Source: Syntrophales bacterium (GTDB lineage: Bacteria > Desulfobacterota > Syntrophia > Syntrophales > UBA5619). Taken from it: a DNA stretch of 64,000 bases. A program made the position numbers and the translations under genes. The stretch spans positions 66,569 through 130,568 of the forward strand of contig JALNYO010000001.1 of assembly GCA_023229765.1 (NCBI GenBank), in the 5' to 3' direction. The notes under the pieces are model-generated. The model saw nothing but the letters and a program-made list of their open reading frames with translations, had not been told where the DNA came from and made no database searches. Numbering within the stretch: position 1 is the stretch's first letter; every line of letters begins with the position of its first letter. Below are positions 1-48,243 of this stretch, piece after piece.

Positions 1-1206
1 GTTCTGCAGAAAAAGGATAAAGGTCGGCGGTTTTACCGAGACCTGGGTTATGTATTTGAAGAGGCGCGGCTGGTCGCCCATCCCCGGGGGGGGGTGCATT
101 TCGATAATCTGACGCATTTTTCTGTTTAACTCGCCCGTTTCAACTCTCTGGGAATACTGGGCGTAAATTTTCTCGACAAGGGGAAAAATTTTTTCAACCC
201 TTTGGCCGGAGGTAGCCGAGACGAAAATAATGGGGGCAAAATCCAGAAACTTGGCCTTGTAACGGATGTCTTCGGTATATTCGGGAACGCTGCTGTTGTC
301 CTTTTTTATCGTGTCCCATTTGTTGACGACGATAATGCAGGCGGTCCCTCGCTCGAGCACAAGGCCGGCTATTTTCAGTTCCTGATCGCTGATTCCATCT
401 ACGGCATCGATCATCAGCAGGGCGATGTCGGCCCGTTCGATTGCCTTGATGGCCTGAACGATCGAATATTTTTCCAGATTCAGGCTGATCCGGCTTTTGC
501 GGCGGATGCCGGCCGTGTCGATCAGCAGAAATTTTCTGCCGTTTCTGGTAAACTCGGTGTCGATGGCGTCCCGGGTCGTTCCAGGCAGCGGATTGACTAT
601 CGTTCGTTCATAGCCGAGTATCCGGTTGACCAGCGACGACTTGCCGGCATTGGGCTTGCCGATTACGGCGATCCGGATGACATCTTCATCACTCGGCGGC
701 GGCTCAGTTCCTTTGGGAATGAACTTGACGACGTCGTCCATCAATTCGTCAATGCCAACGCCATGTTGCGCGGAGACAGCGTAAAGCTGCTCGATTCCGA
801 GACGGTAGAAGTCGGCGATCAGGGTTTCGTACCGGGGGCCGTCGATTTTATTGACAGCGTAAAAGACCAGCTTGTCCGTTGTTCTCAGCAGTTTTGCGAT
901 CTCCTGATCTGCGGGCGCAAGGCCGTCCCGGCTGTCCATCAAAAAGATGATGATGTCGGCTTCCTCAATGGCAAGCATGGTCTGCTCGCGCATCTGGGTC
1001 AGAATCTCCGTAGTCGAGGCGGGTTCAAAACCGCCGGTGTCGATCAGGATGAAAGGGTGGTCCAGCCAGTTGCAATCGGCATAGTTTCTGTCGCGAGTGG
1101 CCCCCGGTTCGTCGATAACGATGGCCTTCCCCCGGCGATGCAGGCGGTTGAACAGGGTTGATTTGCCGACGTTGGGTCGGCCAATGATCGCGATTACTGG
1201 TTTCAT
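1..1206 (-). CDS. der: GTPase Der/EngA; the C-terminus runs off the window start
   Basis: Reverse translation from ATG at 1206 reads MKPVIAIIGRPNVGKSTLFNRLHRRGKAIVIDEPGATRDRNY (P-loop and TRDR motif). The frame stays open to base 1, where it reads FKYITQVSVKPPTFILF (KH-domain motif). It is absent from the ORF track because there is no stop in the window. ORF 202..1161 + is its antisense shadow. Confidence 0.93.
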   Translation of the reverse strand, partial: MKPVIAIIGRPNVGKSTLFNRLHRRGKAIVIDEPGATRDRNYADCNWLDHPFILIDTGGFEPASTTEILTQMREQTMLAIEEADIIIFLMDSRDGLAPADQEIAKLLRTTDKLVFYAVNKIDGPRYETLIADFYRLGIEQLYAVSAQHGVGIDELMDDVVKFIPKGTEPPPSDEDVIRIAVIGKPNAGKSSLVNRILGYERTIVNPLPGTTRDAIDTEFTRNGRKFLLIDTAGIRRKSRISLNLEKYSIVQAIKAIERADIALLMIDAVDGISDQELKIAGLVLERGTACIIVVNKWDTIKKDNSSVPEYTEDIRYKAKFLDFAPIIFVSATSGQRVEKIFPLVEKIYAQYSQRVETGELNRKMRQIIEMHPPPGMGDQPRLFKYITQVSVKPPTFILFLQN

Positions 1207-1208
1207 AG

Positions 1209-1299
1209 TACGGTTCACAGCTCACAGCTCATAGTTTACGGTTGCCGGTTGCCGGTTTACGGTTGCCGGTTGCCGGTTGACGGTTTACGGTTCAGAGTT
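1209..1299. repeat. Tandem heptamer array, 13 units of NNCGGTT type (TACGGTT/GCCGGTT/GACGGTT, degenerate CACAGCT units at the left end)
   Basis: Counted unit by unit in the sequence. It fills the whole spacer between the der start codon (1206) and the stop of the four-helix-bundle gene (1292-1294). It is the reverse-complement family of the array at 1668-1821. Confidence 0.9.
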
Positions 1300-1642
1300 T
1301 TTTCAACGAACCATGCAATGATTGAAGCATTTTCGATATTGATTTCAACTCTTGAATTAATTCTTCAGCATCTGAATCAGAAAATATATGAACCTCACGT
1401 GAAATATAAATCTGTGTTCTCAGTTCCGCAGCCGATCCTTGTGCAATATTTACAAACCTTTGGAAATCCGGGATGCTCTTTCTTTCGCTTCCTTCCGCTA
1501 TATTTGATGGAATAGATATGGATGAGCGCAGCATTTGATCTCTTATTCCATAATCGCGGCAATCTCTTAATAATTTATAAAGACGTACTGATAATCTGCA
1601 AGACATTTTCCAAACTTCTAAATCTTCAAAAGAGGATCCCAC
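1292..1642 (-). CDS. Four-helix-bundle protein of the 23S rRNA intervening-sequence protein / Avd-like family
   Basis: 116 aa: FEDLEVWKMSCRLSVRLYKLL...IPSNIAEGSER...FVNIAQGSAAELRTQIYISRE. The DL.VW start and the NIAEG and GS..EL motifs are typical of this family (PF05635-type). The apparent start is GTG. Confidence 0.8.
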   Translation of the reverse strand: MGSSFEDLEVWKMSCRLSVRLYKLLRDCRDYGIRDQMLRSSISIPSNIAEGSERKSIPDFQRFVNIAQGSAAELRTQIYISREVHIFSDSDAEELIQELKSISKMLQSLHGSLKKL

Positions 1643-1667
1643 AAGCTTCCGCTCCCTCGCGCTTTTT

Positions 1668-1821
1668 CAACCGTCAACCGTCAACCGTCAACCGTTAACC
1701 GTCAACCGTCAACCGTCAACCGTCAACCGTTAACCGTCAACCGTCAACCATCAACCGTCAACCGTCAACCGTTAACCGTTAACCGTCAACCGTCAACCGT
1801 TAACCGTCAACCGTCAACCGT
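1668..1821. repeat. Tandem heptamer array, 22 units of CAACCGT/TAACCGT (one CAACCAT)
   Basis: 154 bp is exactly 22 x 7, counted in the sequence. It lies between the rdgC-like stop (1825) and the four-helix-bundle gene start. It is the reverse complement of the ACGGTTN units at 1209-1299. Confidence 0.95.
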
Positions 1822-1824
1822 TTT

Positions 1825-2940
1825 TCACGGTTGGGAAATCCATTTTTCCAGCCGTTCCTGCTCCTTTGCCCAGTCTGCTGTTTGCCGCAGATTCAAAAAC
1901 GAGTGGAAAAGGTTGTCCATTGTTGCCGCGGCCTTTTCAATCAGATAAATCCTCTCCAGGATTTGTCCCTCCCGGTCTTCCTCATCGTCCTCGGAAAGGG
2001 CGGGGAGCTTCATCGACTGAAAATGAAAACGGTCGGCCTTGAAGGTAAATTCCCACTCATCCTGGTCATGGGAGACCCGGAGCCGGGCCGTGGTGATCTT
2101 CTTTCCCTGCCGAAGCGCCTCTTTTCCCTCTTTAAGGTCGGCGTGCAGTCCCTGACAGATAATCGTTTCGGCGTACTCGCCCTCTCCTGATTCCAGAACC
2201 AGCCGCCGCAGAAAAATTATCTCGTCTTCCCCGCCGGCCGCGTTGCCGATAATGCCGTTTCGCTCCTCGCTTTTAAACCAGAGCCAGGTGAGAAACTCTC
2301 TGCCGATGGTCAGTGGATCGATGCCCGCCGGAAGCGATGGCGACGGCGCATCAAGGGTTTGAGACAGTGCGGGCGTTTCTTTTTGGGTAAGGCTTTTTTC
2401 TTCGCTGTTCCAGGGCGCATGGGGAAACAGCGACAATCCAAATGATTCCCGAAACATTTCCTGTAGTTCGCTGCCGATTTTGTCGGAGAGGGTGCAGAAA
2501 GTCAGCAGCCGGTCGGAGACCGACCAGCAGATTTCATAAAAGGCTGGGACAGGCAGGGTTTTTGCAAGCAATTCAAGTCTGACCGACTCACGGATCGCCT
2601 CGCGCTGTTCCCGGTAAAGCTTTTGCTGCCCACTTTCGGCAAGCGCTTTTCGCTCGGCCTCCATTACCCGGATTCGGAAGAGCGAGGGGGGAACAGACTT
2701 GCGGTCTATCCGGAGTGAAAAGAGCATGTATTTGCCCTGTGCATAAGCTGCGTAGGGGAAATCGGTGTCAAGACAGTTTTCAATCGCAATCCAGCCGGCT
2801 ATCTTTTCGTCCGCCGTGCGCCAACTGTCCTGAAAGGCAAAGCGTTTTATCCGTTCGTCAAAGAAATCATTAAAGCCGTCCGGCAGCGGACCGGTGATAC
2901 GATACCGTGAAAAAGTTACTGTTCCCTTCAAAAAACCCAT
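1825..2940 (-). CDS. rdgC: Recombination-associated protein RdgC-like
   Basis: MGFLKGTVTFSRYRITG...GW...RIDRKSVPPS...LYREQREAIRESVRLELLAKTLP...FRESFG follows the RdgC family layout. ATG at 2940 is preceded by GAGGAG, so the track start at 2961 (TTG) is less likely. Confidence 0.6.
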   Translation of the reverse strand: MGFLKGTVTFSRYRITGPLPDGFNDFFDERIKRFAFQDSWRTADEKIAGWIAIENCLDTDFPYAAYAQGKYMLFSLRIDRKSVPPSLFRIRVMEAERKALAESGQQKLYREQREAIRESVRLELLAKTLPVPAFYEICWSVSDRLLTFCTLSDKIGSELQEMFRESFGLSLFPHAPWNSEEKSLTQKETPALSQTLDAPSPSLPAGIDPLTIGREFLTWLWFKSEERNGIIGNAAGGEDEIIFLRRLVLESGEGEYAETIICQGLHADLKEGKEALRQGKKITTARLRVSHDQDEWEFTFKADRFHFQSMKLPALSEDDEEDREGQILERIYLIEKAAATMDNLFHSFLNLRQTADWAKEQERLEKWISQP

Positions 2941-3083
2941 AAACGTCTCCTCTATTTGCAAGGGACACTAACCTACTTGTCGGGATGATGTCAAGGTCTG
3001 TCTGGCGGAATTTCGATAATGCGGTTGGACAAAAGCGTTGTATTATGGTAGGAAAGCGCCCGAAATTATTTTATGGGAATCCG

Positions 3084-3977
3084 ATGACTATAAATAAGGT
3101 GGGAATAATCGCGAATACTGCCAAGGAAGGGTCAAGCGGTTATACGGTCGATCTGCGGAAATGGCTGCTCAAACGCGGTCTGGAGGTTTATCTCGAAGAG
3201 GGAATTGCCGCGGAAATAGGCCTTCTGGAACCTGAGAAAAGCAGGCTTTGGCTGCAGGCGGATCTGATCGTCGTGTTTGGCGGCGATGGAACGATACTGC
3301 GGACGGCCCGTTTGCTGTCGGAACACGATATCCCCATTGTCGGCGTCAACCTCGGCGTTTTTGGGTACCTCACCGAGGTGAACCTCGACGAGATGTACAG
3401 CGCGCTGGAGGAGATTCTTTCCGGAAGATTTCAGATCGAAACGCGGATGATGCTGCATGCGGAGATTCTGAAAGGCGATGCGCTTTTGCACGGGGGCTCG
3501 GTGCTCAATGACGTTGTCATCAATCGGGGCAATCTTTCCCGACTGGTGGAGCTGGAGACGTCGGTTGACGGCAGTTATCTGACGACCTTCAAGGCGGACG
3601 GCCTGATTGTGGCAACCCCGACCGGCTCCACTGCCTACTCTCTTGCCGCGGGGGGACCAATTGTTTTTCCGGAGCTGGGGTCCATCATCATAAATCCCAT
3701 CTGTCCCCACACGCTGACAAACAGGCCGGTGATCCTGCCGGAAGATGCTGTCGTGGAGGTGATCCTCAATACCCAGGAATCGGGGGCGACGGTCACCATG
3801 GACGGGCAGATATCTTTTCCGATAAATTATAAGGACAGGGTTTTAATTAAAAGATCAGAACAGGTAACGAAACTGGTTTCCTCTCCCCAGCGAGGCTATC
3901 TGGAAATTTTGAGGACTAAATTGGGATGGGGCGGCTCCCAGACAGGACTCTCCCGCAAAGAAACCGATGCTATCTGA
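3084..3977 (+). CDS. nadK: NAD+ kinase
   Basis: GGDGTILRTARLL, NLGVFGYLTE and DGLIVATPTGSTAYSLAAGGPIV motifs. Start chosen at ATG 3084 (MTINKVGIIAN). The ORF is open from 2985. Confidence 0.9.
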   Translation: MTINKVGIIANTAKEGSSGYTVDLRKWLLKRGLEVYLEEGIAAEIGLLEPEKSRLWLQADLIVVFGGDGTILRTARLLSEHDIPIVGVNLGVFGYLTEVNLDEMYSALEEILSGRFQIETRMMLHAEILKGDALLHGGSVLNDVVINRGNLSRLVELETSVDGSYLTTFKADGLIVATPTGSTAYSLAAGGPIVFPELGSIIINPICPHTLTNRPVILPEDAVVEVILNTQESGATVTMDGQISFPINYKDRVLIKRSEQVTKLVSSPQRGYLEILRTKLGWGGSQTGLSRKETDAI

Positions 3978-47265: not shown

Positions 47266-48108
47266 GTGGCGAGTATTTCAATGAAGTTGTTGCTTGAGGC
47301 GGGGGTTCATTTCGGTCATCAGACCAACAAATGGAATCCCAAAATGAAAACGTACATTTTCGGCGCGAGAAACGGGATCTACATCATTGATCTGCAGCAG
47401 ACGGTCGGGCTTTTTCAGACGGCGTACAAGTTTGTTGTGGAGACTGTTGCCGAAGGTGGGGAGCTGCTCTTTGTCGGCACCAAAAAGCAGGCGCAGGAAT
47501 CGATCCAGGATGAAGCCGCGAGGTGCGAGATGCCATGCGTCAATCAGCGCTGGCTGGGCGGCATGCTGACCAATTTTGTAACGATCAAAAAGAGCATTGA
47601 TCGTTTGAACGAACTTGATCAGATGTTCGAGGATGACAGCATCAAGGCTTTTCCAAAAAAGGAAATCCTCGGCATGCAAAAGGACAGGGATAAGCTGATC
47701 AAGGTTTTAGGCGGGATCAGGAAGCTGAAAAAATTGCCCAAATGCCTGTTTATTGTTGATCCCAAGCGGGAGGATATCGCCGTGACCGAGGCGAGAAAAC
47801 TGAAGATACCGATTGTGGCGATGGTCGATACCAACTGCGATCCTGATCTGATCGATTACATAATCCCCGGGAACGACGATGCGATAAGGGCGATTAAACT
47901 GTTTTCCGCCAAGATGGCCGATGCCGTCATAGAAGGCAAAAAACGTTTTGAGGAGCGGCTGCAGGCCCAAAGCGACAAGGAAAGGGTCGCGGCGGATGGA
48001 CCTATAGTCACTTACATAAAAGATGAGAACGATGTTCCTGAAACAGTGGAAAGCAAGGGTTTGGAGGCGCAGGAAAAGGGCGCCGGGGACCTGGAAGCCG
48101 CCCGGTAA
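47266..48108 (+). CDS. rpsB: 30S ribosomal protein S2
   Basis: [38 protein letters not shown]. Confidence 0.96.
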
Positions 48109-48227
48109 ATAGTTAACGGTTGACGGTTAACAGTTGACGGTTAACCGCCGGCAAATATTGAGGTCTTCAATTCAATGCAAACCGGAACCCGGAAACCGTC
48201 AACCGGAAACCGTAAACCGTCAACCGT
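48108..48227. repeat. Inverted heptamer arrays (NACGGTT x5, ~35 nt spacer, NAACCGN x~7) in the rpsB-tsf spacer
   Basis: The left arm 48108-48142 reads AATAGTT AACGGTT GACGGTT AACAGTT GACGGTT. The right arm 48178-48227 reads ...GAAACCG TCAACCG GAAACCG TAAACCG TCAACCGT. This is the same family as 1209-1299 and 1668-1821. Confidence 0.85.
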
Positions 48228-48243
48228 AAGCAAGGAGGATAAA

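Follow-up and report, generated by a model that had tools for sequence, protein, structure and literature searches.

A four-helix-bundle gene between inverted heptamer arrays in a Syntrophales rdgC–der operon, probably a hitchhiking cassette of the 23S rRNA intervening-sequence type

The 64,000-nt stretch analyzed here (the window) comes from the Syntrophales bacterium assembly GCA_023229765.1 (contig JALNYO010000001.1, positions 66,569 to 130,568), and close to its beginning a small gene for a four-helix-bundle protein lies between two inverted arrays of a 7-nt repeat. The open reading frame (ORF; 1292–1642, minus strand) starts with GTG, encodes 116 amino acids, and matches the families PF05635, TIGR02436, and NF008912. 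On the gene strand, it is preceded by a 5′ arm of 22 tandem heptamers reading ACGGTT(G/A) (1667–1821, minus strand) and followed by a 3′ arm that, by direct reading of the sequence, holds 12 in-register heptamers of the NAACCGN type (1210–1293, minus strand). Tandem Repeats Finder describes 1667–1821 as 22.1 copies of a period of 7 with 93% matches and a plus-strand consensus of TCAACCG, and its rows on the 3′ arm span 1234–1292. On the plus strand, nine of the 12 units of the 3′ arm are ACGGTTN or CCGGTTN; the remaining three, the ones closest to the downstream gene der, are degenerate (ACAGCTC twice and ATAGTTT, or GAGCTGT twice and AAACTAT on the gene strand). Allowing at most one mismatch, the pattern ACGGTTNACGGTT is matched 34 times in the window, where shuffles predict 0.2. 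A leader, GAAAAAGCGCGAGGGAGCGGAAGCTT, with a Shine-Dalgarno-like GAGGGAG connects the 5′ arm to the start codon (1643–1666, minus strand), and the TGA stop of the ORF falls within the first unit of the 3′ arm. An earlier note, made from the sequence alone, had described an Avd/23S-intervening-sequence-type gene between inverted heptamer arrays of 22 and 13 units; the family matches, Tandem Repeats Finder, and direct reading bear out the gene, the arrays, and the 22 units, whereas the second array has 12 units rather than 13.

The element fits exactly between two genes on its own strand, as the note had also stated. The 5′ arm starts 4 nt downstream of the stop codon (1825–1827) of an rdgC-like gene (1825–2961, minus strand; PF04381, E = 3.2e-08), and the 3′ arm ends 3 nt before the ATG (1204–1206) of der/engA, which encodes a ribosome-biogenesis GTPase (1–1206, minus strand; TIGR03594, E = 4.9e-155) and is cut by the window edge, so that no ordinary spacer remains on either side. 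The RdgC match is weak (33.7 bits and above the cutoff in Pfam, 23–31 bits against cutoffs of 227–330 in NCBIfam), and an RdgC function should therefore not be assumed for this gene. A single inverted unit, CAACCGT on the gene strand (1827–1833, minus strand), overlaps the stop and the last two codons of the rdgC-like gene; it pairs with the first ACGGTT unit of the 5′ arm and forms a small 5′ hairpin in the minimum free energy (MFE) fold. Further neighbors at the locus encode a RecN-like protein, NAD kinase, a phosphoribosyltransferase, and OTCase. A sister strain whose locus, L001, comes from a separate assembly (GCA_054635285.1, 98.5% identical) has the same arrangement with 22 and 11 units, which shows that the structure is not an assembly artifact. 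Its 5′ arm also has 22 units, in a mix of unit variants different from that of the window.

The 116-aa protein scores 117.2 bits against PF05635 (cutoff 33.8, E = 4.8e-34), 112.8 bits against TIGR02436 (cutoff 24), and 148.4 bits against NF008912 (cutoff 124). Its AlphaFold2 model (pLDDT 92.5) contains four helices, and a Foldseek search with this model leads to 2GSC (TM score 0.85) and 2RLD (TM score ∼0.86); a sequence search against PDB chains likewise returns 2GSC (E = 8.8e-18). Both structures contain five chains, and 2GSC has been described as a homopentamer (PMC4990558). By analogy with these solved relatives, the protein probably forms a pentameric barrel. The next structural matches are 8UB7 and 4DWL, structures of Avd, the accessory protein of diversity-generating retroelements (DGRs), with TM scores of ∼0.78. 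The fold shared with Avd, to which the note had pointed, is thus present, behind the ∼0.85 of 2GSC and 2RLD.

Relatives of the protein number in the thousands, and the best 120 are 77–90% identical and come from Desulfosarcina, Nitrospina, Nitrospirae, and others. We fetched 80 loci, one genome per species, and made counts over 81 loci. The hosts of the close clade (∼69–93% identity) include Desulfobacterota, Nitrospinota, a Nitrospirota-like bacterium, Chlorobium, Cloacimonadota, and Methylococcales (Gammaproteobacteria), among others; copies at 75–93% identity already span all of these groups. Desulfosarcina alkanivorans PL12, a cultured carrier, has two copies (NZ_AP021874.1, ∼2.60 Mb and ∼5.45 Mb). 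In unrelated gene contexts the cassettes of this clade share one layout: an arm, an A-rich leader with a Shine-Dalgarno sequence, the ORF, and a second arm. The leader and its purine-rich Shine-Dalgarno sequence are kept at the same position, the 5′ arm consists of ∼5 heptamers (for example, ACCGTTC ACGGTTT ACAGTTA TCGGTTC ACGGTTG), and the 3′ arm of 4–5 complementary heptamers, the first of which contains the ORF stop. At least three in-register NNNGTTN units (F type) occur upstream of the ORF in 51 of the 81 loci, at least three NAACNNN units (R type) downstream in 54, and both together in 44; the opposite polarity on both sides is found at two loci. Random segments of the same loci gave 6/243 for the F type and 14/243 for the R type. 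Typical arms have 4–6 units, with 5 the commonest length, and more distant members use other units (TAAGTTT, ATCGGTT, GCCAGTT, TAACTGA). We also considered the polarity, GTT upstream and AAC downstream, as a marker of ORF orientation and dropped it, because an inverted repeat looks identical from either strand; the polarity only separates F-R from R-F pairs. The gene and its arms travel as a single unit across phyla.

Within the close clade the median pairwise dN/dS is ∼0.09, which indicates that the gene is under purifying selection and functional, and the window copy differs from the Desulfaltia-type copies by a dS of just 0.2–0.3. The window ORF has a GC content of 36%, compared with 52–54% for the host. 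ORF GC is lower than flank GC in 78 of the 81 loci, and the two are correlated (r = 0.65).

The longest 5′ arms among the 81 loci are those of the window and its sister strain, at 22 units, and expanded 3′ arms occur also at L021 (13 units) and L035 (14 units). At L021, from a Methylococcales metagenome-assembled genome, the 3′ side carries 13–15 TAACTGA units (L021:2845–3087), while the 5′ arm is still of the ACGGTTN type; PMC4679880 reports the TAACTGA repeat as abundant and unexplained in the genomes of Beggiatoaceae. A gene-less inverted heptamer pair lies directly upstream of the ORF at L012:2400–2500, and at L011:2846–2990 a second copy of the 5′ arm plus leader follows the ORF, itself followed by AACAGTG repeats. 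These extra arm-like structures suggest tandem or nested insertions. A soil metagenome contig (Ga0134125_10000091; L135:8130–8845) carries a distant PF05635 gene; after it, ∼4 AACCG-type units stand back to back with 28 TCACGGT-type units as a hairpin. The 28-unit array is the longest seen, and the arms of this copy are arranged R, ORF, R-F, unlike those of the window. Several database proteins of the four-helix-bundle family (P0010, P0107, P0114, P0120) run into translated heptamers, as gene calls for the family often do, visible as TVNR or TVDG tails and as tails or heads such as TVNRQPV and LLTVDGLQFTV. Many carrier contigs do not reach 2 kb, so assemblies seem to break at the arms.

The association extends to distant homologues. 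We examined 16 plasmid homologues, 29–39% identical and mostly from heterocystous cyanobacteria, with Riemerella and Azospirillum in addition. Flank complementarity reaches z ≥ 4 (inverted flanks) in 10 of the 16, and when short periods are compared, 7 scores best in 13 of the upstream and 12 of the downstream flanks. Their units are mutually unrelated (GGGAACA, GGGAAAA, AGGGTGT, GGTGACA, GGTTTAA) and yet keep the period of 7 and the complementarity, which indicates that the two arms have covaried. R-F pairs are among the cyanobacterial copies. The copy on a Pseudanabaena galeata plasmid (L219:270–870) is flanked by ∼15 AAAGCTA units upstream and ∼10 AAAAGCC units downstream, in direct orientation. 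On cyanobacterial plasmids, PF05635 genes also lie in sense orientation within cas operons, between cas6 and cas4 in L219 and L226 and between cas10/cmr2 and cmr3 in L223. A large clustering study lists "23S rRNA IVP" as a CRISPR-associated family (PMC10910872), a listing that may be explained by this position within cas operons, perhaps together with the flanking repeats.

The most direct tie to rRNA comes from plasmid AZO_p2 of Azospirillum lipoferum 4B (NC_016586.1, ∼13.2–16.4 kb; L229:1684–4882), where a PF05635 ORF lies within a 23S rRNA gene. A match of 3199 nt covers the Rfam large-subunit (LSU) model completely and spans the ORF. The arms of this intervening sequence (IVS) are heptamer-periodic (GAGGACG GATGACA GAGGACG GAGGACA) and form its closing stem (fold z = −8), and the sequences that flank the insertion site are similar to E. 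coli helix 45. The ORF has no annotation, and no gene appears at this place in the PLSDB gene table, from which RNA genes and pseudogenes are left out. This IVS links the window cassette to the classical IVS by homology of the protein and of the architecture. The proposal that the heptamer arms go with other copies of the gene family accordingly holds for 44 of the 81 loci, for 10 of the 16 distant plasmid homologues, and for one true 23S IVS.

Sites without the cassette were found through a homologue search with the RdgC-like protein and a comparison of the contigs that carry the homologues. In lineages whose RdgC is 95% (L090), 91% (L083–L085), and 78% (L086) identical, rdgC and der are separated by a plain spacer of 40 or 75 nt that contains neither the four-helix-bundle gene nor heptamers, and the order recN, NAD kinase, rdgC, der, hpt, OTCase is kept. 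Plain spacers in lineages with such close RdgC proteins identify the cassette as an insertion. It replaced a 40-nt rdgC–der spacer in this lineage, in sense orientation, and it was acquired horizontally. This agrees with the note, which had envisaged an IVS-like cassette inserted in an mRNA-coding context; the contrary arrangement, relatives with the gene between rdgC and der and no repeats, was not encountered, as the relatives lack the gene altogether. The rdgC 3′ end reads caaccgTGA at the filled site, cagccaTAA or cagccaTGA in lineages with RdgC 95%, 91%, and 79% identical, and caatccaTAA in the 78% lineage, and every one of these ends encodes WISQP before the stop. In lineages with RdgC 83% and 82% identical, the contigs break in heptamer-like sequence downstream of rdgC, so repeats of this sort appear to recur in the rdgC–der spacer.

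The surroundings of the gene point to dependence on host transcription. Both neighbors are co-oriented with the ORF in 55 of the 81 loci and both are opposed in one, with median gaps of 82 and 67 nt that are mostly arm; the window ORF shares the strand of both its neighbors. Because the inverted repeat is strand-symmetric, the 55:1 bias concerns the ORF, and it argues that the ORF needs read-through transcription from the host or is selected for it. In 1000–3200 we found no terminator-like site, and promoter-like matches occur at chance level. A scan of the neighbors and of the 30 larger ORFs of the window revealed no transposase, integrase, or nuclease in or beside the cassette and no reverse transcriptase (RT) domain, and no repeat resembling a template-repeat/variable-repeat (TR/VR) pair was seen; the adjacent RT and TR/VR pair of a DGR are absent from the window locus. 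Features of miniature inverted-repeat transposable elements (MITEs) or insertion sequences (IS) are represented by the inverted arms, with no recognizable target-site duplication at the filled/empty junctions; neither the cassette nor its flanks encode a transposase, though an enzyme might act in trans. Searches with PADLOC and PHROGs matched no defense or phage families, the viral contigs of IMG/VR and GenBank phages contain no relatives, and plasmid matches are distant homologues only. Whereas IVSs are located within 23S rRNA genes, in helix 9, 25, or 45, the window element occupies the interval from the rdgC-like gene to der; an Rfam scan of 1000–2000 gave nothing above noise and no rRNA, and neither did Rfam detect rRNA in 17 relatives with large gaps.

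As in an IVS, the predicted stem encloses the ORF, which is in sense to its neighbors. The minus-strand RNA of 1200–1830 folds with an MFE of −221.5 kcal/mol, compared with −167.5 ± 4.9 kcal/mol for shuffles (z = −11.1), and in this fold the 3′ array is paired with the ORF-proximal portion of the 5′ array. The note had suggested that the mutually complementary arrays could form a long stem around the ORF, and the fold check indeed predicts stable long-range pairing. Mismatches between the arms are periodic: their frequency is 4–9% in the GTT core but 28% at the purine that precedes it and 35% and 23% at the two positions after it, which makes the stem a series of 4–5-bp blocks broken at every seventh base. 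Over the 81 loci, the flanks are complementary at z < −3 against shuffles in 48.

The heptamer arrays are not confined to the gene. The spacer between rpsB (47266–48108) and tsf (start ∼48245) is filled entirely by a gene-less inverted pair (48112–48229, plus strand) of ∼4–5 ACGGTTN units, a 33-nt core, and ∼7 NAACCGN units, which ends just before the tsf ribosome-binding site and folds at −52.7 kcal/mol (z = −4.4). An exact-protein search for this spacer in relatives led only to a 999-nt contig from the same sample. The sister strain has another pair in the der–hpt spacer, a region that corresponds to sequence upstream of the window's first base (L001:4745–4965); it consists of four ACGGTTT units that begin inside the der stop codon, a ∼165-nt core with its own hairpin, and ∼3 AAACCGT units. 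In one operon, der is thus preceded by a cassette and followed by a gene-less pair. Together with the two arms (1210–1293 and 1667–1821), these pairs place 7-nt arrays at several intergenic sites, the pattern of the short tandemly repeated repetitive (STRR) sequences. Among additional arrays in cassette loci, 8 of 12, a small sample, are within one mismatch of the local arm unit. Gene-less paired tandem hepta- and octamer sites in operon spacers of Geobacter metallireducens were guessed to be IHF/HU sites (PMC2700814), and TAACTGA arrays were described in Beggiatoaceae (PMC4679880); the passages of these papers that were searched for the gene family or 23S make no connection between the repeats and a PF05635 gene.

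Taken together, these observations make it probable that the element is an ORF-bearing hitchhiker cassette of the IVS type, a gene with inverted heptamer arms that was acquired horizontally and sits in sense within a host operon. It is a cassette of the same kind as the ORF-bearing 23S rRNA IVS, with its own ribosome-binding site, no transposase, and no detectable promoter. The cassette is probably cotranscribed with rdgC and der by read-through of the host operon. Its arms would have grown from 4–6 units to 22 and 12, most likely by replication slippage, and in the transcript they would pair into a long stem with a mismatch at every seventh base. Excision by RNase III has been shown only for classical IVSs; in Coxiella, the enzyme cleaves the terminal stem of the IVS, 28 bp long, in vitro (PMC4990558). 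By analogy with rRNA IVSs such as those of Coxiella and Leptospira, it would cut the arm stem here. Such a cut would free the ORF-bearing loop and leave separate, still functional rdgC and der messages, which would explain why the insertion is tolerated beside an essential gene.

Several results weigh against this interpretation. The sense and antisense strands show no difference in duplex energy (44 vs 37 loci, Wilcoxon p = 0.95), and G·U-compatible mismatches are about as frequent as A·C-type transition mismatches overall (102 vs 89, p = 0.39); a modest G·U-compatible excess is confined to the ACGGTTN clade (62 vs 36), whose loci are nonindependent. With no significant sense-RNA signature overall, a role of the arms at the DNA level fits equally well. 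The MFE fold pairs bases up to ∼10 nt before the end of the fragment, and as modeled the stem would probably bury any der ribosome-binding site and could hinder der. Comparison of the filled and empty rdgC–der sites reveals neither a target-site duplication nor an insertion scar, and the entire spacer differs; only possible microhomology is seen at the junctions (CAGCCAT vs CAACCGT at the left end, GTGAA at the right end). Among the distant homologues, the arrays of L219 are direct rather than inverted and L215 has no arrays. Finally, a PF05635 gene is near only 2–3 of 80 metagenome loci selected for at least five ACGGTTN units, and some of these loci are clearly cyanobacterial STRR-type repeats around ordinary genes. 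Given this count and the gene-less pairs in the present genome, we rejected the idea that the arrays are a feature specific to the gene.

It is possible, though on the whole somewhat unlikely, that the arms act on DNA, as terminal inverted repeats or recombination handles for a trans-acting host enzyme or for homologous recombination with gene-less hairpins, and that the RNA stem is incidental. In addition to the lack of a significant G·U signature, such a role would suit the gene-less pairs of this heptamer that lie elsewhere in the genome, in further operon spacers, and could be landing pads, the resemblance of most additional arrays to the local cassette unit, and the conversion of the last rdgC codons to a heptamer unit. 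Against it stand the lack of a transposase, integrase, or nuclease in or beside the cassette, the lack of a target-site duplication at the filled/empty junctions, and the sense bias of the ORF, which a strand-symmetric inverted repeat does not predict and which points to selection on expression. A DNA-level role of the arms is compatible with a hitchhiking cassette, and it fits the data about as well. The sense bias and the Avd-like fold (TM score ∼0.78 to 8UB7/4DWL) could also bring to mind an Avd-type DGR accessory gene, or a cassette mobilized through an RNA intermediate by a reverse transcriptase, since the element is in sense within a transcript. We regard this as very unlikely indeed: no RT is encoded by the immediate neighbors or the 30 larger ORFs scanned, there is no TR/VR-like repeat, PADLOC and PHROGs are without a match, and the resemblance of the protein to the IVS-type structures 2GSC and 2RLD far exceeds its resemblance to Avd.

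Two further explanations take the arrays and the gene apart. Improbably, in our estimate, the arrays could serve to regulate the essential der, as a stem of variable copy number (phase-variable) or as an attenuator of der translation, with the small gene as a passenger. The 3′ arm does end 3 nt before the der ATG and its stem probably occludes any ribosome-binding site; heptamer units are prone to slippage and are not multiples of three, their composition varies between strains, and a short-read contig (L002) shows just seven of them. The two long assemblies, however, have nearly equal numbers of units (22/12 and 22/11), the seven units of L002 may reflect a collapsed assembly, a plain spacer before der is enough for relatives, and the same design flanks unrelated downstream genes elsewhere. 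Alternatively, a resident small gene might simply lie between two STRR-like arrays that arose independently, neither part of a cassette nor functionally tied to the repeats. Gene-less heptamer arrays are abundant, intergenic arrays are known from cyanobacteria, Beggiatoaceae, and Geobacter (PMC4679880 and PMC2700814), and the differing unit composition of the window and its sister strain speaks for fast local turnover. Close relatives, on the other hand, lack both the gene and the repeats at rdgC–der, arms of the same polarity recur in dozens of unrelated contexts and phyla, and the arms of distant homologues differ in unit while they stay complementary. The empty sites and the family-wide association largely refute a chance neighborhood, which we consider quite remote.

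If the element is a hitchhiking cassette of the IVS type, its protein would, as a speculation, most likely bind the periodic stem of its own arms, much as the Avd pentamer holds RNA in DGRs. There, an 11-bp RNA stem-loop is touched by each of the five protomers of Avd, and flipped-out RNA bases enter crevices between them (bioRxiv 10.1101/2023.10.23.563531). The modal arm of five units, the mismatch at every 7 nt, and the Avd precedent are what bring us to this proposal. A broader version, which we hold to be doubtful, is that PF05635 pentamers are the cognate partners of heptamer-repeat stems in general, with each protomer reading one heptamer and the complex controlling RNA-level excision and/or spread; gene-bearing cassettes would then be autonomous, gene-less pairs (STRR-like, TAACTGA, Geobacter sites) nonautonomous, and 23S IVSs the special case that landed in rRNA.

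Comparison with known systems places the element closest to the ORF-containing 23S rRNA IVSs, which are known from Leptospira, Coxiella burnetii (S23p), Xanthomonas, and Brucella (PMC4990558). Both have a PF05635 protein, an ORF in sense within the host transcript, a long stem formed by terminal inverted repeats, a GC content low relative to the host, a sporadic horizontal distribution, and no transposase, and the Azospirillum IVS (L229) also has heptamer-periodic arms. Unlike the IVSs, the window element lies between two protein-coding genes, it has long tandem arrays (22 and 12 units) for arms where the IVSs have a stem of ∼28 bp, and window-type ORFs are under purifying selection, whereas Coxiella S23p was reported as probably not made in vivo (PMC4990558). 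With Avd (4DWL, 8UB7) the protein shares the four-helix-bundle fold, and its relatives crystallize as five chains; Avd demonstrates that a pentamer of this sort is able to hold an RNA stem by means of periodically flipped-out bases. The sequence of the protein is, however, only ∼13–14% identical and its gene is in a housekeeping operon with no RT, TR, or VR found nearby. STRR sequences, the Beggiatoaceae TAACTGA repeat, and the Geobacter sites are likewise tandem 7-nt units in operon spacers, and heptamer arrays often come as inverted pairs on opposite strands at a variable distance; the published accounts searched interpret them as regulatory or as IHF/HU sites, whereas here they are the arms of a gene-bearing cassette. 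MITEs and repetitive extragenic palindromic/bacterial interspersed mosaic elements (REP/BIME) are similarly short, intergenic, and transposase-less, with terminal inverted repeats that give mRNA hairpins and with gene-less copies. They differ in that no target-site duplication or cognate transposase, such as a RAYT, was identified for the window element, and in that window-type arms are heptamer arrays with clade-specific units around a conserved protein gene.

ORF-bearing 23S rRNA IVSs have been known since the early 1990s and STRR heptamer arrays since 1990, and PF05635 proteins are annotated in very many genomes merely as "four helix bundle protein". To the best of our knowledge, neither the 23S IVSs nor the STRR arrays have an accepted function or origin. 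A full-text literature search, which covered little subscription content, returned no paper that links PF05635/S23p genes to heptamer arrays or to insertion within operons. The evidence collected here ties together 23S IVS genes, heptamer arrays, and PF05635 proteins: a gene with inverted heptamer arms enters transcription units in sense, be they rRNA genes, cas operons, or housekeeping operons. The family-wide design of a gene plus heptamer arms across phyla suggests an overlooked class of hitchhiking element. If this is true, it would explain the assembly breaks at these loci, the protein calls that run into repeats, and the apparent CRISPR association; it would make the periodic stem a candidate ligand for a protein family of unknown function, and it would provide a testable model for a class of selfish elements that is tolerated in essential operons.

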